IMG/VR virus record: IMGVR_UViG_3300034082_000804
Coordinates: 1-64,000 of that record
Direction: 5' to 3' (one strand)
Source of the DNA: an uncultured virus (IMG/VR IMGVR_UViG_3300034082_000804)
Lineage: Duplodnaviria > Heunggongvirae > Uroviricota > Caudoviricetes
Length of the DNA stretch: 64,000 nt
Shown: in pieces, positions 31,593 through 52,218 of the stretch
Layout of the letters: the number at the start of each line of letters is the position of its first letter
How positions within the stretch are numbered: the stretch's first letter is position 1
Notes under the pieces: generated by a model
The model's database searches: none
The model's input: only the letters and a program-made list of their open reading frames with translations
What the model was told of the DNA's origin: nothing
Made by a program: the position numbers and the translations under genes

Positions 31593-32534
31593 ATGACTCT
31601 CAAACCTGTAAACGCACATCTTGACAGTGTTACCATCGGTGATGTTGAACTTCACAAACTAATCACGACAGCAGAACTAGATAAAGATCTAAAGAATCTA
31701 GACAAGTTTGATGCTGAGTCTAACGCCAACAACTTTGCTGGCAATCCTTTCTTATATCATTTTCAGTTTAAGAACTTATTAAACTGCCGTAGAAAAGATG
31801 GCAAGACCATATATGATATTTGGAACGATAAACCAGAGTGGGATAAGTTAATAGACAGCACACGTAAACGTAACCGAGGCGGGCGCACTGCCGCTGGCAA
31901 TGTGTTTGAATGTTTCCGTATTAACCTAGGTAGTATTGTGATGTTCAAAGCAACTACTGCCAAGTATCTTTATAAGAAGTACAATGCTACTAGTGTCTTA
32001 GATCCAACAGCAGGATGGGGCGGAAGACTATTAGGTGCTTGGAGTTTAGGCATAGACTATACAGGCATTGACACTAACGTGGAAATGAAACCTGCGTATG
32101 AGAATATGATCACATTCTTAGATGAGTATACAGGATTTAAGAATAAGAATTTCAAAGTTGAACGTAACGGACAGCGCCAAATGATATGGGATAGCTGTTT
32201 AGCAGTAGACTTTAGTAAGTTGGACTACGACTTTGTATTGACTAGTCCGCCATACGTTAATTTAGAACTGTATGAACACATGACTCCTTGGGAAAAGGAT
32301 GAAGACTTTTATACTAACTTCTTTATTCCCTTGTGGGCAAAATGTTGTAAGCATATTAAACAGGGCGGCAACGTTGCGTTTAACATTAGTCCTAAGATGT
32401 ATGAAGATGCGCTCAAGCATGGACTAACACCTTGTGATGAGGAAGAAGACCTACTACAACAAATGGGTCAGAAGAAAGAGCTGTTGACCACAGGCAAAAA
32501 GAAACACGATAAGATTTATATTTGGCATTGTTAA
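31593..32534 (+). CDS. Amino (N4-C/N6-A) DNA methyltransferase
   Basis: LDPTAGWGGRLLG (motif I) and LTSPPY (motif IV); promoter TTGTAA-17-TATAAT at 31559-31587. Confidence 0.8.
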   Translation: MTLKPVNAHLDSVTIGDVELHKLITTAELDKDLKNLDKFDAESNANNFAGNPFLYHFQFKNLLNCRRKDGKTIYDIWNDKPEWDKLIDSTRKRNRGGRTAAGNVFECFRINLGSIVMFKATTAKYLYKKYNATSVLDPTAGWGGRLLGAWSLGIDYTGIDTNVEMKPAYENMITFLDEYTGFKNKNFKVERNGQRQMIWDSCLAVDFSKLDYDFVLTSPPYVNLELYEHMTPWEKDEDFYTNFFIPLWAKCCKHIKQGGNVAFNISPKMYEDALKHGLTPCDEEEDLLQQMGQKKELLTTGKKKHDKIYIWHC

Positions 32535-32542
32535 AATAATAG

Positions 32543-32571
32543 TTGACAATGACACAAAAAGGCCATATAAT
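32543..32571 (+). promoter_or_regulatory. Sigma70 promoter P1 of the tRNA region
   Basis: TTGACA-17-TATAAT. Confidence 0.85.
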
Positions 32572-32614
32572 ATACATATATTTTAAGTAAGACATAAATA
32601 AATTAACAAACAGG

Positions 32615-32643
32615 TTGACAGGCTAATAAATAGACTGTATAAT
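32615..32643 (+). promoter_or_regulatory. Sigma70 promoter P2 of the tRNA region
   Basis: TTGACA-17-TATAAT. Confidence 0.85.
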
Positions 32644-32686
32644 AGTTTTTATAGTAAGAAATTAATTAAAGGAATGCGAAAGCAAA

Positions 32687-32818
32687 ATGTTTAACCAGCT
32701 ACATCAATTTAAAATATCGAAACAAGTGTGCGCACTTGCCACGATGTCTTATTGGTCAGCGATTGAGACATTAGGCAATGATCGCACACCGAATAGTATC
32801 TATGGGGATCTTAGTTAG
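32687..32818 (+). CDS. Putative attenuator leader peptide (43 aa, all 20 amino acids)
   Basis: MFNQLHQFKISKQVCALATMSYWSAIETLGNDRTPNSIYGDLS*; SD AAAGGA at 32668-32673; 3' end overlaps the antiterminator. Confidence 0.7.
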   Translation: MFNQLHQFKISKQVCALATMSYWSAIETLGNDRTPNSIYGDLS

Positions 32819-32859
32819 AGTTTATATATAATATAAATGAATTTTAATTAAGAACCCTA
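32803..32859 (+). promoter_or_regulatory. Putative antiterminator hairpin
   Basis: 32809-32825 pairs with 32837-32853 (17 contiguous pairs, 4 of them G-U); 32803-32807 pairs with 32855-32859. This takes up the terminator 5' arm. Confidence 0.7.
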
Positions 32860-32889
32860 AGATCGAAAGACTTAGGGTTTTTTGTTTTA
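32853..32889 (+). terminator. Intrinsic terminator upstream of the tRNA array
   Basis: AACCCTAAG-A-TC-GAAA-GA-CTTAGGG followed by TTTTTTGTTTT. Confidence 0.85.
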
Positions 32890-32890
32890 T

Positions 32891-33092
32891 GTGTCTCGGA
32901 AACGAGGTCCAGGCAAGGCACATTAAAGATAGTATGTTAAACGGGCGGACAAGTGGATGGCATGTTCTTATGTGAACAGAAAATACTTGTTATAATAAAG
33001 TACATTAATTGGCAACTAGGTCCCACGCAATGTGGATTATGTCAGAGGCGAGTAATTAGTGTGCTTTATTATACGCATTCATATGAGTGCGT
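32891..33092 (+). ncRNA. Candidate structured ncRNA
   Basis: No ORF in the track; several stems, including a 20-bp stem 32991-33010/33054-33073. Confidence 0.5.
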
Positions 33093-33099
33093 TAACAGT

Positions 33100-33181
33100 T
33101 TGTAGATAGTCCTGTTGGGCCAGGAGCCTAGCCATGCTAGGTCAAGATCGCAACTTGTTGGGTTCGATTCCCAGTCTACAA
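33100..33181 (+). ncRNA. tRNA-like RNA with a collapsed anticodon loop
   Basis: Cloverleaf with a GGTTCGATTCC T-arm and long V-arm; 5-nt CCATG loop; no encoded CCA. Confidence 0.55.
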
Positions 33182-33236
33182 TTTAACACGGCTCCTATCT
33201 ATTGCCTACAGGGATAGCTTAGGAGTTATTTTATAA

Positions 33237-33315
33237 CTCAGTGTCGTATAGCCAGGCCTATTATGCGTGCTTTGGGAGCATGAGATCGTTGGTTCGAATC
33301 CAACCACTGAGACCA
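33237..33315 (+). tRNA. tRNA-Pro(TGG)
   Basis: Cloverleaf, loop TT-TGG-GA, encoded CCA. Confidence 0.9.
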
Positions 33316-33322
33316 AGTTTAT

Positions 33323-33407
33323 GGAGGTGTAGGAAAATTGGTAACCCCAGCGGACTGTAAATCCGCCGCCCCTGGCATTGTTGGTTCAAGTCCAACCGCC
33401 TCCACCA
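33323..33407 (+). tRNA. tRNA-Tyr(GTA)
   Basis: Loop CT-GTA-AA, long V-arm, CCA. Confidence 0.9.
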
Positions 33408-33413
33408 TATAAC

Positions 33414-33489
33414 GGAATGATAGCTCAATTGGTAGAGCAAGATGCTTTTAACGTCGAGGTTTAGGGTTCAAGTCCCTATCGTTCCACCA
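33414..33489 (+). tRNA. tRNA-Lys(TTT)
   Basis: Loop CT-TTT-AA, CCA. Confidence 0.9.
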
Positions 33490-33494
33490 GTAAT

Positions 33495-33572
33495 GGTCTG
33501 TTAGAATAGTTGGCCTACTTCGCCTGCCTGTCACGTAGGAGATCACGGGTTCGAATCCCGTACAGACCGCCA
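33495..33572 (+). tRNA. tRNA-Asp(GTC)
   Basis: Loop CT-GTC-AC, GCCA end. Confidence 0.9.
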
Positions 33573-33580
33573 AAAAGATG

Positions 33581-33609
33581 TTGACAACTAACAATATAGA
33601 ATATATAAT
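33581..33609 (+). promoter_or_regulatory. Internal sigma70 promoter in the tRNA array
   Basis: TTGACA-17-TATAAT. Confidence 0.85.
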
Positions 33610-33624
33610 AGTTGTATAGTTAAT

Positions 33625-33699
33625 AGCGGGGTGGGGAAGTGGCAACCCGTCGGGCTCATAACCCGAAGATCGGCAGTTCGAATCTGTCCTCCGCAACCA
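33625..33699 (+). tRNA. tRNA-fMet(CAT), initiator
   Basis: GGG/CCC anticodon stem, unpaired 1:72, CCA. Confidence 0.88.
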
Positions 33700-33704
33700 G
33701 TAAT

Positions 33705-33780
33705 GCCGGATTAGCTCAGTTGGTAGAGCAGCGCACTTGTAATGCGAAGGTCGTCAGTTCGATTCCGACATCCGGCACCA
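33705..33780 (+). tRNA. tRNA-Thr(TGT)
   Basis: Loop CT-TGT-AA, CCA. Confidence 0.92.
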
Positions 33781-33786
33781 GTTTAG

Positions 33787-33862
33787 GCTCCCATCGTCTA
33801 GAGGCCTAGGACACCCGCCTTTCACGCAGGTAACACGAGTTCGAATCTCGTTGGGAGTACCA
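33787..33862 (+). tRNA. tRNA-Glu(TTC)
   Basis: Loop CT-TTC-AC, CCA. Confidence 0.88.
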
Positions 33863-33867
33863 AACAT

Positions 33868-33952
33868 GCCTCTGTGGTGGAATTGGTATACACGCTGGTC
33901 TTAGAAGCCAGTGCCGAAAGGCTTGAGAGTTCGAGTCTCTCCGGGGGCACCA
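33868..33952 (+). tRNA. tRNA-Leu(TAG)
   Basis: Loop CT-TAG-AA, V-arm, CCA. Confidence 0.92.
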
Positions 33953-33955
33953 AAT

Positions 33956-34029
33956 GCGGGATTAGTATAATGGTATTATGACAGCCTTCCAAGCTGATGA
34001 CGAGGGTTCGATTCCCTTATCCCGCTCCA
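33956..34029 (+). tRNA. tRNA-Gly(TCC)
   Basis: Loop CT-TCC-AA, TCCA end. Confidence 0.92.
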
Positions 34030-34032
34030 AAC

Positions 34033-34238
34033 ACTAGCTTTACACTTTGCGCTTTATCGAAAGTGGGTTATTGCCAATACCATAACGGCAGGGTACACAC
34101 GATGGTCTAGACCATACCACAAGTCCCATTGCCGGGAGCCTTGAAAGTATCGTGGGTGTTTTACTGTTTTTAACCACAAAGCAAACAGGCGGACAGGGTA
34201 ACTACTCAATCTAGGGCCAGGTGGTGCTGGTAGCTAGT
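34033..34238 (+). ncRNA. Candidate structured ncRNA (about 205 nt)
   Basis: Closed by ACTAGCT/AGCTAGT with several internal stems; lies between two tRNAs. Confidence 0.55.
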
Positions 34239-34246
34239 CCTTACAC

Positions 34247-34322
34247 GGGGGTGTAGCTCAGTTGGGAGAGCGCATGCTTTGCAAGCATGATGTCGCAAGT
34301 TCGATCCTTGTCACCTCCACCA
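34247..34322 (+). tRNA. tRNA-Ala(TGC)
   Basis: Loop TT-TGC-AA, G3:U70, CCA. Confidence 0.92.
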
Positions 34323-34329
34323 TACAATA

Positions 34330-34404
34330 GGACGGTTAGCTCAGCGGTAGAGCAGGGCCCTTACAAGGCCAAGGTCAAAAGTTCAATCCTTTTACTGTCC
34401 ACCA
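34330..34404 (+). tRNA. tRNA-Val(TAC)
   Basis: Loop CT-TAC-AA, CCA. Confidence 0.9.
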
Positions 34405-34411
34405 AGTTTAT

Positions 34412-34486
34412 TCCGAAGTAGCGTAGCGGTAGCGCAGAAGACTGTTAATCTTTTGGTCGGTGGTTCGATCCCACCCTTCGGAGCCA
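34412..34486 (+). tRNA. tRNA-Asn(GTT)
   Basis: Loop CT-GTT-AA, GCCA end. Confidence 0.92.
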
Positions 34487-34494
34487 TTTTAAAT

Positions 34495-34569
34495 AGTCTG
34501 TTAGCTCAGCGGTAGAGCAGGGTGTTGATAACGCCAAGGTCAGTGGTTCAATCCCACTACGGACTACCA
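34495..34569 (+). tRNA. tRNA-Ile(GAT)
   Basis: Loop TT-GAT-AA, CCA. Confidence 0.9.
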
Positions 34570-34603
34570 ATTAAGTTGTTCTTTTCAATCAAAGGTGAAT
34601 ACT

Positions 34604-35074
34604 ATGAAAAAACTAGACATAAACCAAGTGCGTGACTTTATTCAAGCACAAAGTCTAGAAACCAAAGTCTACATTGGTGGTGACAGTCGACGTTTCCGTA
34701 AGAACGGACAATGGCATGCTGAATATACCTTGGCTATTGTAGTACACATTGATGGGAAACATGGCTGTAAGATCTTTGGTGAAAGTAGTACTGAAGTGGA
34801 CTACGATCAAAAACGTAGTCGCCCAAGTATGCGCCTAATGAACGAAGTCTACAAAATTAGTGAACTGTACTTAAAGCTACACGAAGTATTAGAAGACCGT
34901 GAAGTTGCTGTACATTTGGACATTAACCCAAACGAACTACATGGCTCAAGCTGTGTAGTACAACAGGCTATTGGTTATATCCGCGGAACATGTAACGTTA
35001 TTCCAATGGTTAAACCAAACGCCTGGGCAGCTAGTTATGCGGCTGATCGTTTAAAAGAAATTATAGCAGCATAA
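34604..35074 (+). CDS. RNase H-like YkuK-family protein
   Basis: VYIGGDS, RLMNEV, VHLDIN, ASYAADR pattern; track start 34595, ATG 34604 preferred. Confidence 0.7.
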   Translation: MKKLDINQVRDFIQAQSLETKVYIGGDSRRFRKNGQWHAEYTLAIVVHIDGKHGCKIFGESSTEVDYDQKRSRPSMRLMNEVYKISELYLKLHEVLEDREVAVHLDINPNELHGSSCVVQQAIGYIRGTCNVIPMVKPNAWAASYAADRLKEIIAA

Positions 35075-35081
35075 GTTTAAT

Positions 35082-35156
35082 TGGGGTATGGTGTAATTGG
35101 CAACACAACACACTTTGACTGTGTCGTTTCAAGTTCGAGTCTTGATACCCCTGCCA
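35082..35156 (+). tRNA. tRNA-Gln(TTG)
   Basis: Loop CT-TTG-AC, GCCA end. Confidence 0.9.
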
Positions 35157-35158
35157 GT

Positions 35159-35402
35159 TTTGTTAGTGTGTGTACAGTAACCGTTATGTGACTATAGATT
35201 ATACTTAATCCTTCTATAGTGTACCCGATGTCTGTAGCAACATATCTTAGGATATGTCTGTTGGTGAATTAAGTGTAGTCAACGACTAACAAATTTAAAC
35301 AGTATCGGCCACGCCTCTTAACAATGCGCAACATGGTAAGCTGGATTTACAGCTAAAACTTGAGGACGCTCAAGGCTTCGGTCTTCCGGTGGGATAACCA
35401 CC
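35159..35402 (+). ncRNA. Candidate structured ncRNA(s)
   Basis: TTTGTTAGT/ACTAACAAA closing stem (35159-35293), then four small hairpins at 35339-35402. Confidence 0.45.
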
Positions 35403-35409
35403 AATCTAT

Positions 35410-35485
35410 TCCGGTGTAGTGTTAACGGCTAGCACGATGGTCTCCAAAACCACAAGACGCGGTTCGAATCCGTGCACCGGAGCCA
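35410..35485 (+). tRNA. tRNA-Trp(CCA)
   Basis: Loop CT-CCA-AA, GCCA end. Confidence 0.9.
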
Positions 35486-35493
35486 AACATAAT

Positions 35494-35544
35494 TTGTACA
35501 GTATAATGTACAAAATACCCCAAAATTGTACAGGATACTGTACA
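35494..35544. repeat. Two copies of a 19-bp imperfect palindrome
   Basis: TTGTACAGTATAATGTACA (35494) and TTGTACAGGATACTGTACA (35526). Confidence 0.7.
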
Positions 35545-35560
35545 CTTTAATATATAAAAT

Positions 35561-35637
35561 GCAACGGTACCAGAGTGGCCTAATGGCAAGGACTGCAAAT
35601 CCTTTGTACGTCGGTTCAAATCCGACCCGTTGCTCCA
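35561..35637 (+). tRNA. tRNA-Cys(GCA)
   Basis: Loop CT-GCA-AA, TCCA end. Confidence 0.92.
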
Positions 35638-35642
35638 ATTAT

Positions 35643-35719
35643 AGAGATGTAGCATAGTGGCCTAATGCACTTGCTTCATACGCAAGCTACCGTAGGTTCA
35701 AATCCTACCATCTCTACCA
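35643..35719 (+). tRNA. tRNA-Met(CAT), probably elongator
   Basis: Loop TT-CAT-AC, paired 1:72, CCA. Confidence 0.8.
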
Positions 35720-35720
35720 C

Positions 35721-35799
35721 GCCCCCATAGCTCAGTCTGGACTAGAGCATAACGCTACGAACGTTAGTGTCGGAGGTTCGAATCCTTCTGGGGGCTCCA
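35721..35799 (+). tRNA. tRNA-Arg(ACG)
   Basis: Loop CT-ACG-AA, CCA. Confidence 0.92.
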
Positions 35800-35808
35800 A
35801 ATAAAATG

Positions 35809-35872
35809 TTACTGAGCAGTAATATTTGCCGTCAAACCCGGCTAAATCAGTTCAAATATTACTGAGCAGTAA
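35809..35872. repeat. Long hairpin bounded by two TTACTGAGCAGTAA copies
   Basis: 14-bp repeat at 35809 and 35859; CAGTAATATTTG/CAAATATTACTG inverted arms. Confidence 0.7.
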
Positions 35873-35881
35873 GATTAAAAT

Positions 35882-35956
35882 GCGGATATAGCGTAGCAGG
35901 AAACGCACGTGCTTGCCAAGCATGAGTCACGAGTTCGAATCTCGTTATCCGCTCCA
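35882..35956 (+). tRNA. tRNA-Gly(GCC)
   Basis: Loop TT-GCC-AA, TCCA end. Confidence 0.92.
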
Positions 35957-35958
35957 AT

Positions 35959-36033
35959 GGTGTCTATAGTGTAGCGGCAACACTAAGGATTGTGATTCCT
36001 TCATCACGGGTTCGAACCCCGTTAGACACCCCA
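35959..36033 (+). tRNA. tRNA-His(GTG)
   Basis: Loop TT-GTG-AT, G-1:C73, CCA. Confidence 0.9.
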
Positions 36034-36034
36034 C

Positions 36035-36063
36035 TTGACAAGTCAACCAAATGACTGTATAAT
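36035..36063 (+). promoter_or_regulatory. Sigma70 promoter
   Basis: TTGACA-17-TATAAT; ATG 6 nt downstream. Confidence 0.85.
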
Positions 36064-36069
36064 ACGCTT

Positions 36070-36312
36070 ATGAATGATGAAGAACAATTAGCATGGGACA
36101 TATTAAGCACGCCAAATAATGCGGACTTTAAGAATTATCGCAGACAGCATCGTATGACATGGTTAACCAAAGACCGTAAGATATTGTTGATCAGAGACAT
36201 GGAAACAGCACACATCATAAGTTGCGTTAATATGTTAGAAGCATTGGGGCAAGAAGAAACCTTGGCCTATAATGGCCTAATAGATGAACTAAGAAAGCGA
36301 GGACAAGAATAA
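36070..36312 (+). CDS. Hypothetical protein
   Basis: 80 aa; WLTKD...IRDMETAHI. Confidence 0.65.
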   Translation: MNDEEQLAWDILSTPNNADFKNYRRQHRMTWLTKDRKILLIRDMETAHIISCVNMLEALGQEETLAYNGLIDELRKRGQE

Positions 36313-36695
36313 TGGACTTTACCATTGACTCAGAGTACTTAACAGATGTAACAATTCGCAAAGAATGGAACACTTATACACAGAATGGTCGCGTACCAAC
36401 TAATGAAGAACTTATTTTAATTATTCAAGGTAAAGGTGTGTGTTCAACTACACACTCAGAAGACCATCCGGAGTTTGCTAAGTTGCGTGAGCAGTTAGGC
36501 GAGTTGGGTTATATTGAGATTCAACGCAGTTGGTGGAATGGAGATAGAGTTCTAAAGCCGTTCAAACTTAACGGCAGAAAGTTCAAAGAGGGTGATCAGT
36601 TTAGTTGTGGTAGTGCAATGGGTAATCATCTTATTGTACGTGCCAAACACCCGGAATATTATAAGGATGAATACGATGATGAAACCATGGATTGA
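36312..36695 (+). CDS. Hypothetical protein
   Basis: 127 aa; start overlaps the upstream stop. Confidence 0.65.
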   Translation: MDFTIDSEYLTDVTIRKEWNTYTQNGRVPTNEELILIIQGKGVCSTTHSEDHPEFAKLREQLGELGYIEIQRSWWNGDRVLKPFKLNGRKFKEGDQFSCGSAMGNHLIVRAKHPEYYKDEYDDETMD

Positions 36696-37095
36696 AAATA
36701 TTAGTCTTGATGATGTGCGTAAAGGATATCACTACGACCCAGGTTTCAACAGTATGCTAATACAGATTGTAGATCCTGGTACAGAATTCCCAACACCTAA
36801 GTATGACTTCCACACTGTACGCCAGTTCTACTTCTTAGATGTAGAAGAAAGCGATAGCGAAAAGTTTTACTATGCGGCAGCCATTACCAATGAAGATGCT
36901 AAAGGTATTGCTAACGCATTAAAAGAAGCATGGGAACAGAGTATGAACGTAGTGGTACACTGCCACATGGGTGTAGCACGTAGTGGAGCAGTAGCAGAAG
37001 TAGGACAAATGATTGGGTTTAGAGATACAGAGAAATTCCGTGTTCCAAACCTAATGGTCAAACACAAGCTAATGCACTATTTAGATTTAGTTTAG
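36676..37095 (+). CDS. CX5R (tyrosine/dual-specificity type) phosphatase
   Basis: VVHCHMGVARS motif and FLDVE loop; start placed at ATG 36676 after AAGGA. Confidence 0.75.
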   Translation: MMKPWIENISLDDVRKGYHYDPGFNSMLIQIVDPGTEFPTPKYDFHTVRQFYFLDVEESDSEKFYYAAAITNEDAKGIANALKEAWEQSMNVVVHCHMGVARSGAVAEVGQMIGFRDTEKFRVPNLMVKHKLMHYLDLV

Positions 37096-37098
37096 AAT

Positions 37099-37174
37099 GC
37101 CACCTTAGCTCATCTGGTAGAGCACATGTTTGAAGCACATGGTGTGCCTGGTTCAAGTCCAGGAGGTGGCACCA
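37099..37174 (+). tRNA. tRNA-Phe(GAA)
   Basis: Loop TT-GAA-GC, CCA. Confidence 0.9.
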
Positions 37175-37187
37175 AGTTTGGAAGAAA

Positions 37188-37348
37188 GCCGGTACATTAT
37201 GTATTCGAGGTTAGGAGAGACCGGCAAACCGTCCATATAAAGACCAGACCTCAATCTCGTTAAGAGACAATTCTGGTTCCGCTGACGCGAAAAGAGGATG
37301 GGCTGCGCTCACGGGGTTTGTTAGGTTCCTGACACATGAATACCTAAC
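37188..37348 (+). ncRNA. Candidate structured ncRNA
   Basis: Stems GCCGGT/ACCGGC, CCGTCC/GGATGG, ACCAGA/TCTGGT, GTTAGGT/ACCTAAC. Confidence 0.5.
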
Positions 37349-37356
37349 ACTAACAT

Positions 37357-37444
37357 GGAAGTTACTGAGGTCGGCTCCTCACACAGTCTTGAAAACTGTA
37401 GTTACCAGGAATGGTAAATCGTTCGATGCGATTAACTTCCGCCA
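37357..37444 (+). tRNA. tRNA-Ser(TGA), non-canonical D-arm
   Basis: Loop CT-TGA-AA, long V-arm, GCCA end. Confidence 0.8.
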
Positions 37445-37449
37445 AATAC

Positions 37450-37478
37450 TTGACACTGTCGGCAAACGGTGTTATAAT
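37450..37478 (+). promoter_or_regulatory. Sigma70 promoter
   Basis: TTGACA-17-TATAAT with a TGn extension. Confidence 0.85.
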
Positions 37479-37498
37479 AGTTGTATAGTAAGAAATTA

Positions 37499-37588
37499 GG
37501 AGAGTTGGCCGAGTGGTCGAAGGCAGCGGCTTGCTAAGCCGTCCTCCCAGTAATGGGAGCATAGGTTCGAATCCTATACTCTCCGCCA
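37499..37588 (+). tRNA. tRNA-Ser(GCT)
   Basis: Loop TT-GCT-AA, long V-arm, GCCA end. Confidence 0.92.
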
Positions 37589-37598
37589 AGATTAAGTA

Positions 37599-37674
37599 GG
37601 GCCGATAACTCACTCGGCGAGAGTACTGTGCTCATAACGCAGAAGGCAGGGATCATAACCCTGGCGGCCCACCA
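37599..37674 (+). tRNA. tRNA(CAT), probably Ile2 (lysidine-type)
   Basis: Loop CT-CAT-AA; C4:G69 and C5:G68 as in TilS substrates; atypical T-loop. Confidence 0.65.
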
Positions 37675-37675
37675 A

Positions 37676-37760
37676 GCGACTGTGGAGAAACTGGTATACT
37701 CATCAGACTTAAAATCTGACGCCGCAGGGCATGGCGGTTCGACCCCGCCCAGTCGCACCA
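37676..37760 (+). tRNA. tRNA-Leu(TAA)
   Basis: Loop CT-TAA-AA, V-arm, CCA. Confidence 0.92.
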
Positions 37761-37766
37761 GACACT

Positions 37767-37841
37767 CCGGTGTTAGTTAAATGGATATAACAGGGGATTT
37801 CTACTCCCTAGTTGGGGGTTCGATTCCCTCACGCCGGACCA
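37767..37841 (+). tRNA. tRNA-Arg(TCT)
   Basis: Loop TT-TCT-AC, CCA. Confidence 0.88.
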
Positions 37842-37859
37842 TAACAACAAGGAAACAGT

Positions 37860-38117
37860 ATGTCAATAATACAAAATTATAATGTAGAAGAACAACTAAC
37901 CGCCGCAGAAAATCGAGCAATTGAAAAACGTGAAGCAGACGAAATTATCAATAATGCTATGAAAGAATTCTTAGCCAGCGGCGGAAAGATACAACAGATT
38001 GAGCGGGGAGTTAGCCAGCAAGCAGACGGCGCATCTTATGCAGCCTGGGGAGCAGCACGCAAAGCAGGTCGCCCAACAACAGATACGACAGCTTCAATAG
38101 CAGACCTTAACAAATAA
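37860..38117 (+). CDS. Hypothetical protein
   Basis: 85 aa; EFLASGGKIQQI; SD AAGGA. Confidence 0.65.
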   Translation: MSIIQNYNVEEQLTAAENRAIEKREADEIINNAMKEFLASGGKIQQIERGVSQQADGASYAAWGAARKAGRPTTDTTASIADLNK

Positions 38118-38135
38118 TATAAAAGGTAATACTAT

Positions 38136-38384
38136 ATGAAATTTACCCTAGCAGAAATTATTGAATTAGCTAAAGAAGTAGAACTTAGCGATGAAATCGA
38201 TTGGGACGATTTGCCCTTAGATAAAGATCGCATCTACCAAATCATTGGTAGTCAAACCTATGAGCTATACCAAGAGTATGCTCTGTCAGAAAACGGTGAA
38301 GCTATACTCTTAGCCACCATCACAAAGTTGTTGATCGAAAACTTCGTATTGAATTTACGTGTGCGAGGCAACAACGTCTTATAA
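38136..38384 (+). CDS. Hypothetical protein
   Basis: 82 aa with SD. Confidence 0.65.
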   Translation: MKFTLAEIIELAKEVELSDEIDWDDLPLDKDRIYQIIGSQTYELYQEYALSENGEAILLATITKLLIENFVLNLRVRGNNVL

Positions 38385-38394
38385 ATACTCAACA

Positions 38395-39471
38395 ATGATA
38401 CTGCTTTTCAATGTTAAAATCACCAGTCAAGGTCTGAGTTATTATCACCGTAGCGAATGGCTACCTGTGTATGATCGCATGGACATCTTTAAATACTGCC
38501 TAGCCAGTTATTCAGCACTACTCCCCTTACTAAGTAAATGTTTATTTTACATTCAAGTTGAACCAGAATTTGCTCACAGACAACAAGAATTACAAGCATG
38601 GATCACAGAGTTATTTCCTGCTGACCGTTTAGAACTACATTGGCATCGCATTAATCACACTCGTGATTGGCGCACACTGGGCGAACAGTTTGCTGATGAT
38701 GACCTAATATGGTTTGCTGGTAATGATGATCATATCTTTATAGATCACAACCTAGATGTAGTGGCCGCTGGCATTCGACTATTAAATGAAGACCCCGACC
38801 CACTAAGCGTAATTTACTACAGCCATTGGCCAGAACAGATGCGCCTAAGCATACACCATAATGGCGAACTTACACCAGATGGTAATTACATTAAGCACGT
38901 TTGGCGCACGTTTGATGCTATACGAATTTTAAAAGGTCAACGCTTTAAACAGTATTGGCAGGATAATGAGTACGGCGACGAGATTGTATTCCGCACAGAT
39001 ACCCTATGGCACAAGGGCTATGAGTTAACAGGCCCTGTCTACAGCCCAACACGTGAGCTAGTTCGTCACTACGATGGCTACAGTCATGTTAGTCCACATA
39101 TTATCAACCTAGCACCTCCTATTGTTATTCCTCCGGGCTTCTTTACTCGAGACATGCGAGTGCGTATTGGCTACGAGGATAGAGACAACAGTGCTACTAA
39201 TCTTTATGCCGCGGCACAATTCCTATATGCGGCACAGCCACAGGGTACTGACTATCGTTGGACCATCGAAGACATTCCGTTATTTTGGAAGAAATACATA
39301 GCTGATGTTGATGTTAATCTAGATCAACATATCTACAGTCTACAACAAGCACGTGATGCGGCCTACTTGGCCAGTACACGTATTCCAATGACCTGTTACA
39401 GCACAACCTTTGATCATACAGGTGCCGCACCTGACAGTTGGTTTAATAATCATTTGAGAACACGTGGATAA
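38395..39471 (+). CDS. Hypothetical protein, possibly glycosyltransferase-like
   Basis: NDDH motif; start moved to ATG 38395 after TATAAATA. Confidence 0.5.
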   Translation: MILLFNVKITSQGLSYYHRSEWLPVYDRMDIFKYCLASYSALLPLLSKCLFYIQVEPEFAHRQQELQAWITELFPADRLELHWHRINHTRDWRTLGEQFADDDLIWFAGNDDHIFIDHNLDVVAAGIRLLNEDPDPLSVIYYSHWPEQMRLSIHHNGELTPDGNYIKHVWRTFDAIRILKGQRFKQYWQDNEYGDEIVFRTDTLWHKGYELTGPVYSPTRELVRHYDGYSHVSPHIINLAPPIVIPPGFFTRDMRVRIGYEDRDNSATNLYAAAQFLYAAQPQGTDYRWTIEDIPLFWKKYIADVDVNLDQHIYSLQQARDAAYLASTRIPMTCYSTTFDHTGAAPDSWFNNHLRTRG

Positions 39472-46380: not shown

Positions 46381-47667
46381 ATGGATTATAAAATCAAAGA
46401 CATTGGACTTGCGGCGTGGGGTCATAAAGAAATAGCCATTGCTGAAACGGAAATGCCGGGCCTAATGGCAGTACGTGAAGAATACAAAGAATCACAACCA
46501 CTTAAAGGCGCTCGCATCGCAGGGTCACTACACATGACTATTCAAACTGCGGTACTTGTACAGACTCTGATCGCGCTAGGAGCAACAGTGCGTTGGAGTA
46601 GTTGTAATATTTTTAGTACACAAGACCATGCCGCGGCTGCCTTAGCTGACCTGGGTATTCCTGTGTTTGCTTGGAAAGGTGAAACAGAGGAAGAATACTG
46701 GGATTGTATTCAACGCACCCTACATGGTCCAGATGGTTGGACACCTAATATGCTATTAGATGATGGACATGATCTAACCTATTATATACACAAACACCAC
46801 CCGGGCCTATTAGGTAATATCCGTGGAGTGACAGAAGAAACCACAACTGGTATACACAAAATTAACGAAGCAATTGCCAAAGGTCAATTCCACCTGCGTG
46901 CTATTAACGTTAACGACTCAGTGACTAAAACTAAGTTTGATAATCTATACGGTTGTCGTGAAAGCCTAGTTGATGCTGTTAAACGTGCTACAGATGTTAT
47001 GATTGCTGGTAAGATTGCTGTGGTAGCAGGCTATGGCGATGTAGGCAAAGGTTCAGCCGCTAGTCTACGTGCTCTGTCAGCTCAAGTTTGGGTAACTGAA
47101 GTAGATCCAATCTGCGCCTTACAGGCCGCAATGGAAGGTTACAAGGTTGTTACCATGGACTATGCCGCAGACAAAGCAGACATCTTTGTAACAGCCACAG
47201 GTAACATCAATGTTATCACACACGATCATATGACGGCTATGAAGAACAACGCTATTGTATGTAACATTGGTCACTTTGACAGCGAGATTGATATTGCTAG
47301 TATTGCTGGTTACGAGTGGGATGAAATCAAACCACAGGTAGATCATGTGACCATGCCAAGTGGTCGTAAGATTATTGTTCTAGCTAAGGGACGACTAGTA
47401 AACTTAGGTTGCGGTACAGGACATCCTAGCTTTGTTATGTCAAACAGCTTTACCAATCAAGTGCTAGCACAGATTGAAATGTTCCAAAACTGGGAAGACT
47501 ACAATACTGGTAGTATTCATTTGTTGCCTAAACACCTAGATGAAAAAGTAGCTAAACTACACCTAGCACAAATTGGTGCGCAACTAACAGAGTTGTCAAC
47601 GGATCAAGCTAACTACATTGGCGTTAGAGTAGAAGGTCCATATAAAGCAGAAACATATAGGTACTAA
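46381..47667 (+). CDS. ahcY: S-adenosylhomocysteine hydrolase
   Basis: [49 protein letters not shown]. Confidence 0.97.
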
Positions 47668-47671
47668 GATT

Positions 47672-48769
47672 ATGAAAATAACTAAAATCCCAGGGTTAGG
47701 TAGATTTGGAGTTATCATTGATGACTTAGATCTTAATAACATTACCAACGAAGAGTGGTTAGCTATTGGCCAGCAACATTTACAGAACCTTGTAACTGTT
47801 TTTAGAAAAGCCAATATAACCAAAGAGCGTCAAATTGAACTGACAAACATGTTAGGTGCTCAACGTTTTGGTACTAAAAATTACTTTATCAACAAGTATA
47901 AACAACCATGGGATCTTATTATTGCCTTGGCATTGGAAGATGACAAGTCAATTGATAGTTTAGATCGTACAGTGATACGTAGCTGTATTAGTGCGCAAGA
48001 GCACACAGATACAGGCTACGATATTACACGAGTACAGGGTGGATATGATGCCAACGGCAATCCATTGGGTATGTTTGCTGAAGGTGAATTGTTGTGGCAC
48101 AGTAACGAAAGTGGTACATTAACGTTTACTCCAGGTGTTAGTTTACTAGCGGCCAAAAACGTAGTAGGCAGTGCCACAGGATTCCTGACCACAACTGACT
48201 ATTACGAATCAGTGCCGGATAGTTTTCGCCGTGAGTTAGATGAAATGATAGTCCTACATAGATTTACTCCGGGTAAGATCTGCCCTGGACTAAACAAAAA
48301 ACAAGACATCATTATGAATCTTAACATGTGCCCATATGATGATACAGAAATTCCAATGATCATGACTAGCCCAGGCGGAGTCAAAGGTCTACACTATAGT
48401 GTTAACACAGTGTGGAGTATCAAAGGCATGACCAAGAAAGAAAGTGATAAAGTCTTTGCTCGTATTAACAAAGAATTATTTGTACCTGAGTACACCTACG
48501 ATCATTGGTATGAAAACGAAGGCGATTGGTTATTATTTGATAACTCAATTACACAGCACAGACGTTTGGGTAATATTAAAGATCGTTTATGCTATCGTAT
48601 ACAGCATGACTACACTAATATTCAAAATGGTGTTTGGTATCCTTACGCACAGAAAGATATTCAACGTAGATATGAGCAAGAAATACGTAGATTTATCAAA
48701 GCAACAGGACATAAAGATTTTAAACTACCACCACGTAGGCTCGCTGACTTTATTCCTTTTTTTAAATAA
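47672..48769 (+). CDS. TauD/TfdA-family Fe(II)/2-oxoglutarate dioxygenase
   Basis: WHSNE, GDWLLFDNSITQHRR. Confidence 0.75.
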   Translation: MKITKIPGLGRFGVIIDDLDLNNITNEEWLAIGQQHLQNLVTVFRKANITKERQIELTNMLGAQRFGTKNYFINKYKQPWDLIIALALEDDKSIDSLDRTVIRSCISAQEHTDTGYDITRVQGGYDANGNPLGMFAEGELLWHSNESGTLTFTPGVSLLAAKNVVGSATGFLTTTDYYESVPDSFRRELDEMIVLHRFTPGKICPGLNKKQDIIMNLNMCPYDDTEIPMIMTSPGGVKGLHYSVNTVWSIKGMTKKESDKVFARINKELFVPEYTYDHWYENEGDWLLFDNSITQHRRLGNIKDRLCYRIQHDYTNIQNGVWYPYAQKDIQRRYEQEIRRFIKATGHKDFKLPPRRLADFIPFFK

Positions 48770-48772
48770 CTA

Positions 48773-49306
48773 ATGCTTAATCAGTTGATATCTTTTTTTA
48801 AATCTAAAGAAAGTTATAGAACTCTACTAATGTTTGGGTCAGTTACTGACAGTGCCGCGGCAGAAATTACTGTCGACGGCACTATTGTACATTCTGGACC
48901 ACTGACATCTGGTCTATTATTTAAATTTGTAACAAATGTAAAGGTACATGGAACTGTAGACGTTAATATTAAATTAATCTATGGGTCATTTACTATTAAT
49001 AATATTAGAGCCAGATACCCGGCACTAATTAATAATAGTTACCGAGGCTATATAGACTTTCCACAACCAATTAGTCAACCCATTATTGATCACACACTAC
49101 CACTAGTAGTCAATGATACTATATCATACAAACATTTTATGTATAATGGACCTAAGCAATGGTTAACAAATTCAAAATCAAACCAGCGTGTTGTAGTAAT
49201 AGAAGATTATTACACAGCGGCCAAAACAGGCGTCATTAAAACAGATTGGCAGTACTACTACAAGACTATTAATATAGAAGAATTAGATAATATAAATCTA
49301 CACTAA
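48773..49306 (+). CDS. Hypothetical protein
   Basis: 177-aa ORF. Confidence 0.55.
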   Translation: MLNQLISFFKSKESYRTLLMFGSVTDSAAAEITVDGTIVHSGPLTSGLLFKFVTNVKVHGTVDVNIKLIYGSFTINNIRARYPALINNSYRGYIDFPQPISQPIIDHTLPLVVNDTISYKHFMYNGPKQWLTNSKSNQRVVVIEDYYTAAKTGVIKTDWQYYYKTINIEELDNINLH

Positions 49307-49445
49307 CTAATTTGCTCAAAAAGCTGTTAAAACCCCGCTAGATCATTATATAATATTTTATTGCTAGTATCAGCCATATAAATAAAACTGTGGCTTATAC
49401 GCACCCATGTGGCATAAAAGCAACAATTAACAAAGAGGAAACACA

Positions 49446-50657
49446 ATGAAGAAATTATTATTAGCAACACTATTAGCAAGTATGTACTCTACAGCTAACG
49501 CTGGCATTCAAATCCCAGCAGGTGACTGGACATTAGACATTGGTGGCGTGGTAAACGCTTACTATACTAATACACGCGGTACAGGTGATGTAGTAGTTGG
49601 TGGCCTTGGTGGTCCTAACAGCACAGGCCAACGTAATGAATCAAATATTACAACTGGTTTATTACCAAACGTATTATCAGTTTCTGGTAAATCACGTCAA
49701 AATGATTTAGACATCGGTTTTACTATCGCAATTAATCCAGGCGCTTCAACTACAGCGGCTGGTGATCAAGGCGCTAACCAAGAAAATCGTCAAGCATTTT
49801 TAACCATTGGTGACAAATCATGGGGTAGCGTAAAACTAGGTAAAGACCTAGGCATTTTCGCTAGTGATGCTATCTTAAATGATATGACATTGTTGGGTGT
49901 AGGTTCTGGTGCTGGCGCACTAGCTGGTAACACAACAACATTGGGTCGTATTGGTACTGGCTTCATGTACGCTGATTGGAAATCACAAATTGCTTACACA
50001 TCACCAAACTTTAATGGCTTTAGCTTTACGGCTGGTGTAACACAAGCATGGAATGCTCAAACAGCTGACCTAAGTGCTGTGACTGCGGGTGTACAAGCTG
50101 CTTCAGCAACTTCAACAGGCCGTGGCGGTGCTCAACCAGCATTTGAAGGTAAACTATCATACTCATTAGAAGGTCCTATCGCTGCTAAAGTATGGTCAAG
50201 TGCTATTTCACAAAAAGTTGAAGGTGTAACTGGCTCTGCAGCAGATGACCGCGCTTATGCTTGGGACGTTGGTACAAACTTGGCTGCTGGCCCATATGGT
50301 TTAACTGCTTACTACTTTGATGGTAAAGGTATTGGCCGTACACTACAATTAGCTGATGGTTTTGATACTACTGGTCGCCGTCGTGATTCAAACGGCGGAT
50401 ACGTTCAAGGTACATACACATTGCCTACAGCTACTAAACTTGGCGTAAGCTGGGGTCAAAGTAAACTAGATCGTAATAGTGGTGAAACAGCTACCGCATT
50501 AGTTTCGAAAAACGAAATGTGGACAGTTGGTGCTTATCACCCACTTACAAAACACGTTAATCTAGTTGCTGAATACTCAGACGTTAAATCAGAAGCACAA
50601 AATGGTGCTGAAGGTAAATCACGTTCAGTATCAGCAGGTGCTATCTTATTCTTCTAA
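49446..50657 (+). CDS. Gram-negative outer-membrane porin
   Basis: Signal peptide, NRQAF...WGSVKLGK, YTSPNFNGF, C-terminal Phe. Confidence 0.85.
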   Translation: MKKLLLATLLASMYSTANAGIQIPAGDWTLDIGGVVNAYYTNTRGTGDVVVGGLGGPNSTGQRNESNITTGLLPNVLSVSGKSRQNDLDIGFTIAINPGASTTAAGDQGANQENRQAFLTIGDKSWGSVKLGKDLGIFASDAILNDMTLLGVGSGAGALAGNTTTLGRIGTGFMYADWKSQIAYTSPNFNGFSFTAGVTQAWNAQTADLSAVTAGVQAASATSTGRGGAQPAFEGKLSYSLEGPIAAKVWSSAISQKVEGVTGSAADDRAYAWDVGTNLAAGPYGLTAYYFDGKGIGRTLQLADGFDTTGRRRDSNGGYVQGTYTLPTATKLGVSWGQSKLDRNSGETATALVSKNEMWTVGAYHPLTKHVNLVAEYSDVKSEAQNGAEGKSRSVSAGAILFF

Positions 50658-50681
50658 GATTTACTTCTTAGTTTAATAATT

Positions 50682-50708
50682 AAAAAGCCCCTTAACTGGG
50701 GCTTTTTT
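50682..50708 (+). terminator. Intrinsic terminator
   Basis: AAAAAGCCCC-6 nt-GGGGC followed by a T-tract. Confidence 0.85.
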
Positions 50709-50712
50709 ACGG

Positions 50713-50752
50713 CTGTAATAAAAATTTAATCTGTTTGTAACACTACTGTAAT
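50713..50752 (+). promoter_or_regulatory. Putative Pho box (four half-sites)
   Basis: CTGTAAT, ATTTAAT, TTGTAAC, CTGTAAT at exactly 11-bp period. Confidence 0.65.
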
Positions 50753-50790
50753 CTTTGTGTGTTTAAATAATATATATAAGGGGAATATTA

Positions 50791-52218
50791 ATGACCATAC
50801 AAAAGATTAAATCAATAATGTATTATGTAGTGATAGCACTAGCAGTATCAGTTGCAGGATTAAAGCAAGCGCATGCCGACAGCACTAGCGACATTGTTAA
50901 CGCACTAGTTATGAAGGGTGTACTTACAGAAGAAGAAGGCGCACTTATAACCAAAGGACACAGCGGAGAAAAAGTAGCTGCTAAAAAAGAAAAAGACACT
51001 ACTGTACATGCGGCTAGTAAAATGAACATTCGTGGCTATTTACAAGTGCGCAATACTACTATGCTTAGTGGTGACGAAGGAGTCAACCTTTGGTCAGATC
51101 GATCTGTAGGTAATAAAAACTCTCTTGCTGATCAAGACAAAAACTTTCTTATCCGTCGAGCACGTGTGATCATTTCTGGTTCAGCTGGTGATCGTTTAGA
51201 TTACTATATTCAACCCGACTTTGCTAGTACAGCAGGTACCACAGGTAACGTTGCTCAACTACGTGATGCTTACGGTGACGTGAATCTAACCAAAGACAAA
51301 GTACATCGTGTACGTGTAGGCCAAAGTAAAGTACCATATGGCTTTGAGAATTTACAATCTTCACAAAATCGGTTAGCACTTGATCGTGCTGACGCATTTA
51401 ATAGTGCGGTGCGTGATGAACGTGATTTAGGTGCGTTCTACTACTACACACCTGATAATATACAAAAGCTGTTTAAAGAAATACAAGATGCAGGATTAAA
51501 ACATTCAGGAAACTACGGTATGTTTGGCATTGGTGTGTATAACGGTCAAGGTGCTAACCAACAAGATCGTAATGATAATTACCACACAGTAGCACGTCTT
51601 ACTTACCCATGGAAAACAGAAAGCGGCCAAATATACGAAGCTGGTGTACAAGGTTATACAGGCAAGTATGTAAGAACAGGTAGTGCGTATAGAAGAAATA
51701 TGGGCAACAACGTTTACGCAACTAAAACACCAACATTAGAACCAGGCAACACCACTGGATTCAAAGACGAACGTATGGGTGTAAGTTTTATGATGTACCC
51801 ACAACCGTTTGGTCTACAAGGTGAGTGGAACTGGGGCAAAACTCCTGGCTTAGATACTACTGCTAGTACTGATGGTATTATTAAAGAAACTAACTTGAAC
51901 GGTGGCTACATTCAAACTATGTATAAAATTGATCACTTCAAAGTTGGCGATACTGATGGTACACTAATTCCATTTGTTAGATGGCAATACTTTGATGGTG
52001 CGTCAAAAGCAGAAACTAACTCACCGATGAATAAAGTTAACGACTGGGAAGCAGGTGCTGAATGGCAAATTGCGCCAGAAGTTGAACTTGTGGCTTACTA
52101 TCATCATATGAATCGTAGCAATTTAGTAACTGGAGCATCGTCTACTACAATAGTAAAACAAGACTATGCTAACTTTAAAGCAGACGCTTTACGTGTTCAA
52201 CTACAGTATAACTTTTAG
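50791..52218 (+). CDS. Phosphate-selective porin, OprO/OprP-like
   Basis: Signal peptide, IRRARV, LRDAY, GQSKVPYGFENLQSS, RDLG, C-terminal QYNF. Confidence 0.8.
   Translation: MTIQKIKSIMYYVVIALAVSVAGLKQAHADSTSDIVNALVMKGVLTEEEGALITKGHSGEKVAAKKEKDTTVHAASKMNIRGYLQVRNTTMLSGDEGVNLWSDRSVGNKNSLADQDKNFLIRRARVIISGSAGDRLDYYIQPDFASTAGTTGNVAQLRDAYGDVNLTKDKVHRVRVGQSKVPYGFENLQSSQNRLALDRADAFNSAVRDERDLGAFYYYTPDNIQKLFKEIQDAGLKHSGNYGMFGIGVYNGQGANQQDRNDNYHTVARLTYPWKTESGQIYEAGVQGYTGKYVRTGSAYRRNMGNNVYATKTPTLEPGNTTGFKDERMGVSFMMYPQPFGLQGEWNWGKTPGLDTTASTDGIIKETNLNGGYIQTMYKIDHFKVGDTDGTLIPFVRWQYFDGASKAETNSPMNKVNDWEAGAEWQIAPEVELVAYYHHMNRSNLVTGASSTTIVKQDYANFKADALRVQLQYNF

Follow-up and report, generated by a model that had tools for sequence, protein, structure and literature searches.

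The stretch of DNA analysed here (the window, 64,000 nucleotides) comprises positions 1 to 64,000 of the IMG/VR virus record IMGVR_UViG_3300034082_000804, an uncultured member of Caudoviricetes. The record is 75.9 kb long and is estimated to be 22% complete, and the runs containing the window are lake-water metagenomes. Among the proteins of this large tailed phage are a tail sheath, a T4-type terminase, a RecA-like protein, radical-SAM enzymes and two Gram-negative-type porins. Its plus strand carries an array of 26 tRNA genes for all 20 amino acids (33237..37841). Upstream of the array, on the same strand as all elements of the leader described below, lies a short open reading frame (ORF) of 43 codons and a TAG stop codon (32687..32818), followed by an intrinsic terminator (32853..32889). 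The sequence comparisons presented here make it likely that this leader element is a ribosome-dependent transcription attenuator governing read-through into the phage tRNA genes, the array being its presumed target.

Two perfect sigma-70 promoters had been proposed in front of the ORF and both score 12/12. P1 (32543..32571) is found in the window and its near-identical copies only and lies outside the conserved module; the alignment of variants breaks down upstream of about 32589. P2 (32615..32643) is the promoter of the leader module, with a predicted transcription start at about 32650-32651, and its hexamers TTGACA and TATAAT/TATACT are retained in all aligned variants. Altogether the scan found five 12/12 promoters, at 32543, 32615, 33581, 36035 and 37450, the last three inside the tRNA array, and 31 promoter-like sites versus 14.7 +/- 4.3 in shuffled sequences. 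Those at 32615, 33581 and 37450 have the hexamers and the first ~15 transcribed bases in common, and these alike initial bases suggest a common promoter class for the tRNA region. The 5' untranslated region (UTR; 32651..32686) holds a Shine-Dalgarno (SD)-like AAGGA (32669-32673) and a hairpin with a GAAA loop (32675-32684). It is conserved among variants, and its indels are not multiples of three.

The leader ORF employs 33 different sense codons and reaches all 20 amino acids by codon 35, as the original prediction stated and as translation and a codon count confirmed. A codon-anticodon tally likewise agreed with the prediction that 24 of the 25 elongator tRNA species of the array find a cognate codon in the ORF (22 of 23 non-CAU anticodons plus ATG and ATA), Arg-TCT alone being uncovered. 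The chance check proposed at that time, on 35-residue windows containing all 20 residues, gave 8 out of 15,658. With 43-residue windows the frequency was 154/15,202 (1.0%) among the long ORFs of this phage and 1.5-1.8% in random 43-codon ORFs. Six-frame ORFs of 35-60 amino acids in the window have all 20 residues in one case out of 227, namely the leader ORF. None of 2,778 43-codon windows of real genes reached a tRNA coverage of at least 24 (maximum 23, mean 17.9), and random ORFs cover at least 22 of the 23 non-CAU anticodons with P = 0.002. The codon choice is atypical too, with a score akin to the codon adaptation index within the lowest 0.4% of gene windows. Taken alone, the leader ORF is unusual at about the 0.1-2% level, which is suggestive, not decisive, and the case rests chiefly on the comparison with relatives.

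Next to the ORF we found two competing hairpins. The RNA of 32650-32889 folds at -64 kcal/mol (z = -5.55; none of 200 shuffles folds as well). The antiterminator hairpin (32798..32863) has its 5' arm at 32798-32825 and its 3' arm at 32837-32863. The 5' arm takes in the last six codons and the TAG (32816-32818), while the 3' arm and the terminator stem overlap at 32853-32863. A hairpin in which the end of the ORF takes up the 5' arm of the terminator had been predicted, and the fold confirms it with these arms. The terminator itself consists of a stem-loop (32853-32879) and a U-tract (32880-32889). A simple terminator scan passed over it because its loop is longer than the limit of the scan; folding, together with pairing in 19 variants (99% paired, 3 compensatory pairs), verified the predicted terminator. 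The antiterminator and the 5' domain are 92% paired with 8 pairs altered on both sides, which 0 or 1 of 500 shuffles reach. Five pairs with changes on both sides are found in the upper helix of the antiterminator (helix 11), and the lower helix (helix 10), which overlaps the terminator, is 85% paired.

Two further helices involve the ORF. A long-range helix (helix 2; 32671..32679 with 32782-32790), predicted and backed by covariation, joins a segment overlapping the 3' end of the SD with codons 32-35. It is 95% paired, and two of its seven pairs show two-sided changes (U-A to C-G; G-C to A-U). In the finished transcript it would shut most of the ribosome-binding site, as the trp leader reportedly does with its own. 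The apical hairpin in codons 12-18 (helix 9; 32721..32740) has a conserved stem, 94% paired, and a variable 4-nt loop in which the codon for Cys15 lies.

The variants fall into three diverged 3' designs: the window type, a 41-42-codon type and a 48-50-codon type. Energies of the terminator-forced and the antiterminator-forced folds are at most about 5 kcal/mol apart in all 19 folded variants, which represent the three designs. A fold with the antiterminator arm blocked had been proposed as a check. In our version the footprint of a ribosome was masked in an equilibrium model of the 3' part, which is no stand-in for co-transcriptional kinetics; the probability of the terminator was 0.02-0.31 with the A-site at codons 20-36 and moved to 0.69-0.70 from codon 37 to the stop codon. 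Codon 35 had been placed about one footprint before the hairpin, and the modelled switch at codon 36/37 fits this. The jump is at codon 35/36 and codon 37/38 in the other two designs, and the expected direction was seen in all six window-family variants scanned from the three designs.

We then compared the module with its relatives. The neighbouring methyltransferase led to 31 related loci, of which only 6 bear the leader. Scanning 26 loci for tRNAs, we observed 20 without the leader, 13 of them without any tRNA and 7 with one to five. An 18-mer from the ORF core retrieved 26 IMG/VR contigs bearing the module (promoter, ORF, hairpin and terminator), a 5' UTR pattern added one more variant at three loci, and a gapped pattern retrieved 23 metagenome stretches. 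The family totals 31 distinct DNA versions of the ORF and 27 distinct peptides, with lengths of 41-50 codons. The reading frame is open in all 31 versions, and the alternative pairing is kept in the 19 variants of the three designs. The anatomy that had been proposed (a translated leader, a stop codon in the 5' arm of the antiterminator and an arm shared with the terminator) is retained by 30 full-length copies that differ in sequence. Wherever a related locus offers 700 nt or more of downstream sequence (23/23), the module is followed by a tRNA array on its own strand. These arrays usually start with tRNA-Pro. In 11 loci tRNA-Met and tRNA-Arg(TCT) are found upstream of the module, so the module can lie within a rotated array.

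A minimum spanning tree linking 30 distinct elements served to count indels and stop codons. Indels in multiples of three make up 8/9 of those inside the ORF versus 3/42 outside (Fisher p = 2.2e-6), and the sole off-frame indel within the ORF, of a single nucleotide, falls close to the 3' end in the part that differs between designs. The 199 substitutions in the ORF produced zero premature stops (P = 3.8e-5, simulation). The ratio of nonsynonymous to synonymous changes (pN/pS) stays close to 1 for the majority of the 36 pairs compared (0.26-2.2 overall, undefined for one pair), so the peptide sequence appears free of purifying selection. A codon-degenerate pattern of the core recovered exactly the same 26 contigs as the 18-mer, and we found no synonymous variants of the core, which points to a constraint at the RNA level. 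A frame that is kept, a peptide that is free and an RNA that is constrained look like a regulatory leader, unlike a small protein. From the selection on the reading frame we infer that the leader ORF is translated. The leader peptide gave zero matches in a PHROG search and zero in tblastn against 50,697 phage records (E <= 10).

The region between the terminator and the first tRNA (32890..33236) would be transcribed by read-through and is a conserved structured RNA. Positions 32890-33100 are conserved in all module variants, with covarying hairpins and no match to an Rfam family. A conserved extended -10-like TGTTATAAT at 32988-32996 could be an extended -10 promoter or a piece of the structured RNA. 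Of the 8 relatives examined, 7 have a 42-codon gene, equipped with an AAGGAG ribosome-binding site, whose start lies 10-12 nt beyond the terminator. The gap leaves no space for a promoter, so the gene requires read-through, and for that reason the terminator is not a full stop. The inserted ORF is rich in Lys, Glu and Leu and is followed by the conserved RNA of the window (loci L034, L035, L045, L048, L054, L055 and L058), while L037 has a weaker AAGAAG site for the ORF after the terminator. A degenerate tRNA-like element with a long variable arm (33100-33182) is found between the conserved leader RNA and tRNA-Pro. ARAGORN names it Ser (GCT) at a relaxed threshold only, and the Rfam tRNA model misses it. 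The relative L145 is without this insertion.

Similar leaders were found in other large phages. Using blastn of the module against cultured and uncultured phage records (50,697), we obtained matches to the terminator region only, in two huge uncultured phages. In LR756504.1, a 29-codon Leu/Ser/Cys-rich ORF, with TTA, CTA, TCG, TGT and AGT among its codons, and a terminator precede the tRNAs Leu(TAA), Leu(TAG), Ser(TGA), Cys(GCA) and Ser(GCT). In LR756502.1, a 34-codon Asn/Leu/Thr/Val-rich ORF comes before a block that opens with Asn, Asn, Leu, Val, Ile and Thr and continues with more tRNAs. A terminator-consensus scan of IMG/VR, from which 80 of 90 matching stretches were taken, brought the set to 82 loci including the two huge phages. 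Same-strand tRNAs lie at most 1.6 kb downstream in 53/82, and 49 of these 53 have a short ORF that ends within the 75 nt upstream of the terminator. The 29 loci outside these 53 are for the most part ordinary ends of genes or contigs. The 7-kb flanks revealed that further terminators of the same phages also have matched leaders. For example, a leader with Asn, Ile, His, Phe, Ser, Gln, Trp, Cys, Pro and Tyr precedes an Ile-Asn-Tyr-Trp-Phe-Pro-Gln-His-Ser-Ile-Arg-Cys block, a PQDQDQP leader stands before Gln-Asp-Pro, and an Arg/Ser/His/Lys/Phe-rich leader before Phe-His-Lys-Arg-Ser-Ser-Ser.

The match between leader and block was quantified with a rule-based scan that is blind to tRNA identity and takes the longest ATG ORF ending 12-45 nt before a simple terminator at most 700 nt upstream of a tRNA. 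It gave 59 modules in 26 clusters (<50% identity), among them five consecutive Gln codons before three tRNA-Gln, a YYYEAE leader before Glu-Tyr and a Gly-rich leader before two tRNA-Gly. The fraction of leader codons read by the own block was 0.406 versus 0.260 when permuted (z = 8.5; 26 clusters, not fully independent because some serve similar blocks). The fraction of own-block tRNA species with a cognate leader codon was 0.912 versus 0.652 (z = 6.8), in both tests with simplified wobble rules and CAU counted as Met. None of 100,000 permutations reached the observed value in either test. The match persists for the 20 leaders with fewer than 18 residue types, and in a hand-picked set of six families 0/265 derangements matched the observed fit. 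In all 26 clusters 21-34 nt separate the stop codon from the terminator arm downstream of it, and this codon lies within or beside the 5' arm of the competing hairpin.

Leaders with all 20 amino acids also recur, in 5/26 clusters versus 0.32 expected (P = 3e-6). Among the distinct candidate peptides beside terminators, 19/45 have all 20 residues (lengths of 36-56), 14 of them outside the window's family. There is no candidate peptide with 19 residue types, and the remainder have 9-18. All-20 leaders with enough flanking sequence precede long broad arrays, and the array of L345 covers all 20 amino acids. There are thus two kinds of leader, one listing its block and one listing everything, and the window has the second kind before a complete array. 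The proposal that the codon content senses the downstream tRNAs gains support from both the block-mirroring leaders (z = 8.5 and 6.8) and the recurring all-20 leaders.

Single phages (loci L317, L319, L341, L347, L310 and L353) have two or three different leader-terminator modules, every module with its own block and its own list of amino acids. Their upstream regions contain AT-rich TAnnTTTG-like motifs and no SD, features that we take to be of Bacteroidota type. The leaders of the huge phages are AT-rich and SD-less, with promoter motifs that we assign to the same type. Since both sigma-70/SD-type and AT-rich, SD-less contexts were seen, the hosts of the leader-bearing phages appear to span different phyla. 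The leaders of a Ser-Asp-Val-Glu-Thr-Lys-Met-Ala-Gly-Leu block differ between L235/L248 and L227/L241 by the substitutions Val to Ala, Thr to Ala and Glu to Asp, which remain among the amino acids served by the block. In L220/L310 a 63-residue cold-shock-protein-like gene ends at an AACCCT-type terminator, and the Asp/Pro tRNA block downstream has its own leader.

Features expected of an attenuator are therefore found together at this locus: a frame-selected ORF, an intrinsic terminator, an antiterminator that excludes it and codons that match the downstream supply. The structures come from prediction and covariation, and the switch would work as follows. RNA polymerase would start at about 32651 from the very strong promoter, and a ribosome would load on the nascent leader and translate the 43-codon ORF. 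When it reaches the last seven codons or the stop, it would cover 32798-32825, so that the freed 32853-32863 forms the terminator and transcription stops at the U-tract. A ribosome delayed within codons 1 to about 36, where the cognate charged tRNA is scarce, would allow 32798-32825 to pair with 32837-32863. The antiterminator would then block the terminator and the polymerase would continue into the tRNA array. The new tRNAs would relieve the stall, a negative feedback on tRNA supply. The block would be transcribed in earnest only when ribosomes stall on codons that the block decodes. As the leader of the window samples 20 amino acids and 24 of 25 tRNA species, it would report the overall decoding capacity. 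For an all-20 leader the likeliest mode is a race between ribosome and polymerase that would measure the total decoding time, and rare leader codons would sensitise this race.

Similar switches probably precede tRNA blocks in many large phages. We also favour, with less confidence than for the switch itself, a broader picture in which large phages would keep their tRNA supply in a closed loop, with leaders that spell out their own block and with complete arrays receiving a pan-codon 'decoding-speed meter'. The natural trigger may be a mismatch in codon usage, the shut-off of the host or a host defence that cleaves tRNAs. The last of these was put forward with the original prediction and would fit the current thinking on phage tRNAs (PMC10264068, PMC11555353).

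Several observations weigh against the attenuator or limit what it can do. The promoters at 33581, 36035 and 37450 can bypass the switch and express most of the array without read-through; this caveat accompanied the original prediction and was borne out, all three scoring 12/12. The TGTTATAAT at 32988-32996 may do likewise. The spacing from the SD to the ATG is long (13 nt). One or a few codons per amino acid should make a weaker sensor than the classical codon runs, and an extra tRNA would be no help if the stall stems from amino-acid starvation. Six RNA runs hold small shares of the stretch, and assembled contigs cover the leader in 3 of the 4 runs checked; the data are contigs from which ends, strand and level are not readable, and uncovered stretches are uninformative. 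One contig from an RNA library starts at 32651, which is a weak hint of the transcript start only, and one RNA contig of a variant (depth 105) spans the leader and the downstream RNA. In the equilibrium model only some of 14 representatives of other families show a clear switch: the terminator is dominant at any ribosome position in 6/14, and L201 shows the reverse ribosome dependence.

The coverage of the relatives is a further point of this kind. The ORF and the covarying stems are kept in related phages, as expected from the prediction, but full coverage is not, with Cys absent from 5/27 peptides and 1-3 tRNA species missed. All 20 residues are present in 22/27 peptides and the other five lack Cys alone; a further 10 have their sole Cys no earlier than the modelled switch point. 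Coverage of a phage's own tRNA species ranges from 15/17 to 21/22 in eight relatives (P = 0.01-0.15, random ORFs). A ninth locus, L091, bears the window's own leader and reaches 22/23 (P = 0.0015), and the window is the best case in the leader family. Some relatives retain an all-20 leader before reduced arrays of 7-13 tRNAs. L084 and L087 have Cys-less leaders yet encode tRNA-Cys, and for this reason we rejected the idea that Cys-less leaders are paired with phages lacking this tRNA. Cys is found at six different positions, in the N part only, both parts, the C part only or neither in 10, 2, 10 and 5 peptides, respectively. The idea that Cys moves to compensate was set aside: shared ancestry could explain the split, and Cys codons arise easily under neutral evolution (~3% of codons, as estimated from base composition). 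The all-20 content across the family is mostly due to shared ancestry and, judged within the family, the evidence for selection for pan-amino-acid content is weak.

We considered other explanations of the same observations. The module could stand alone as a small gene or a dual-function small RNA, served by a promoter of its own and ending at an ordinary terminator, with the tRNAs transcribed from other promoters and no regulatory role for the overlap of hairpin and terminator. The module does own a perfect promoter and a strong terminator, its RNA is highly structured (z = -5.55), its core is fixed at the nucleotide level, and other promoters are at hand in the conserved TATAAT with an extended -10 at 32988-32996 and inside the array. 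Moreover, attenuator-derived RNAs can reportedly act in trans in other bacteria (PMC6614838). We nevertheless regard this explanation as unlikely. A pN/pS of about 1 speaks against a functional protein, the module precedes a tRNA array in 23/23 loci, a promoterless gene abuts the U-tract in 7/8 relatives examined and the alternative pairing is retained in three designs. It also leaves unexplained why leaders mirror the codons of their blocks in other phages.

The second alternative keeps a switch coupled to translation and changes its logic or its output, so that stalling terminates transcription or leader translation controls the processing or stability of the tRNA precursor. It could draw on L201, where Tyr/Phe codons lie in the 5' arm of the antiterminator and a ribosome placed there gives more terminator in the model, on the 6/14 representatives without dependence on ribosome position and on the 10/27 window-family peptides with the only Cys codon past the switch point. 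In most leaders, though, the block-specific codons lie upstream of the G-rich 5' arm. The stop codon 21-34 nt before the terminator arm in 26/26 clusters is a geometry for stalling that leads to read-through, and all six window-family variants put through the model, from its three designs, switch in the expected direction. Such a different logic has a small probability in our estimation.

It is very improbable that the core peptide Leu17-Pro35 acts as a TnaC- or SecM-like nascent-chain arrest sequence for sensing a small molecule, its codon content being incidental. The core is almost invariant and has a Trp, an acidic residue four positions on and a Pro 12 after the Trp. This spacing resembles that of TnaC and is a lead, not a test. 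On the other side, the Trp-to-Pro spacing is 12 or 13 among variants, and a W-x3-acidic-x7-P ruler was dropped for this variation. The core tolerates the changes A18V, M20I, S24L, L29F/S and T34A, pN/pS is about 1, and the lack of synonymous core variants indicates a constraint on the RNA. Leaders of other phages have the same architecture without such a peptide.

Finally, the idea that chance alone put an ORF of such amino-acid content into a structured intergenic RNA has a negligible probability: random 43-codon ORFs have all 20 residues at 1.6-1.8% and a pN/pS of about 1 is equally expected of non-coding DNA, but the frame is kept (p = 2.2e-6 for indels, 3.8e-5 for stops), all-20 leaders occur in 5/26 clusters versus 0.32 expected and the leader-block match has z = 8.5.

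Some other features of the window were recorded beside the leader. Inside the tRNA array, an RNaseH-like protein of 159 amino acids (PF04308, phrog_11311) is encoded at 34595-35074, between tRNA-Ile and tRNA-Gln. A 167-residue ORF at 36592-37095, between tRNA blocks, has no Pfam match at 1e-4 and contains an HC-x5-R(S) loop, which we take to resemble the motif of Cys-based phosphatases. A tRNA-free gap of the array has a weak match to abiF RNA (35309-35336; 30.6 bits, gathering score 37). Outside the array, an S-adenosylhomocysteine hydrolase, a TauD-type dioxygenase and the two porins (Porin_4 and Porin_O_P) are encoded at 46381-52218, and four radical-SAM proteins elsewhere in the window.

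The purpose of phage tRNA genes has been debated for decades. A switch that reads the codons of the downstream tRNAs would show that the tRNA supply of these phages is regulated and demand-driven, and it would also reveal which codons the phages monitor. If this is true, the phage detects a mismatch in codon usage, the shut-off of the host or the cleavage of tRNAs by defence nucleases and answers with exactly those tRNAs that are missing. The leaders would be natural sensors of decoding capacity, and the matching rule would help to annotate the tRNA operons of uncultured phages together with the regions that control them. The candidate reasons for phage tRNA genes include codon compensation and escape from tRNA-cleaving host defences (PMC10264068, PMC11555353). 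The words promoter, terminator, leader and attenuat- are all absent from the main text of PMC10264068. A full-text search of literature available without subscription found no description of leader peptides or attenuators before phage tRNA genes. A cmscan of 32000-38500 (E <= 1) gave zero matches to Rfam leader families, T-boxes included, and returned tRNAs and weak chance matches only. Among the latter, a MicX match with 18.7 bits against a gathering score of 75 was discarded as chance.

T-box riboswitches are similar to the phage leaders in sensing the state of a specific tRNA and in choosing between a terminator and an antiterminator before genes of the translation apparatus. They bind the uncharged tRNA directly and without an ORF, whereas the phage leader would be read by a ribosome. 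The pheM leader of pheST is a case of leader-peptide attenuation acting on a gene of the decoding machinery. It controls a synthetase, has Phe codons only and is chromosomal, while the leader described here is phage-borne and stands before tRNA genes. Leaders of the ermC, vmlR and msrD type reportedly also use a short ORF as a gauge of impaired elongation in general, with relief of a terminator or exposure of a ribosome-binding site as the outcome (PMC9226507, PMC10314930). Their trigger is a ribosome-bound drug at particular peptide contexts, in contrast to a codon inventory that matches the downstream tRNAs. From Sinorhizobium, the attenuator-derived small RNA rnTrpL and the peptide peTrpL reportedly show that a terminated leader can be an abundant structured RNA with a possible second life in trans (PMC6614838, PMC7298713).

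The closest resemblance is to the enterobacterial attenuators (trpL, hisL, pheL, leuL, thrL and ilvL). These likewise have a short translated ORF whose codons name the sensed commodity, a stop codon beside or in the 5' arm of the antiterminator, mutually exclusive hairpins and an intrinsic terminator before the genes. In appearance, the polyGln, Leu/Ser and Asn/Leu/Thr/Val leaders found in the other phages are exactly of this type. The phage leaders differ in being phage-borne, in preceding tRNAs instead of enzymes and in listing several or all 20 amino acids instead of a run of one residue. Because the regulated genes are tRNAs, the product itself would relieve the stall. As far as sequences can tell, the working principle is that of classical leader-peptide attenuation, whose features that can be tested in silico are present here. 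What would be new is the use of tRNA genes as a target with direct product feedback, the leaders with many or all 20 amino acids and the setting in large phages.

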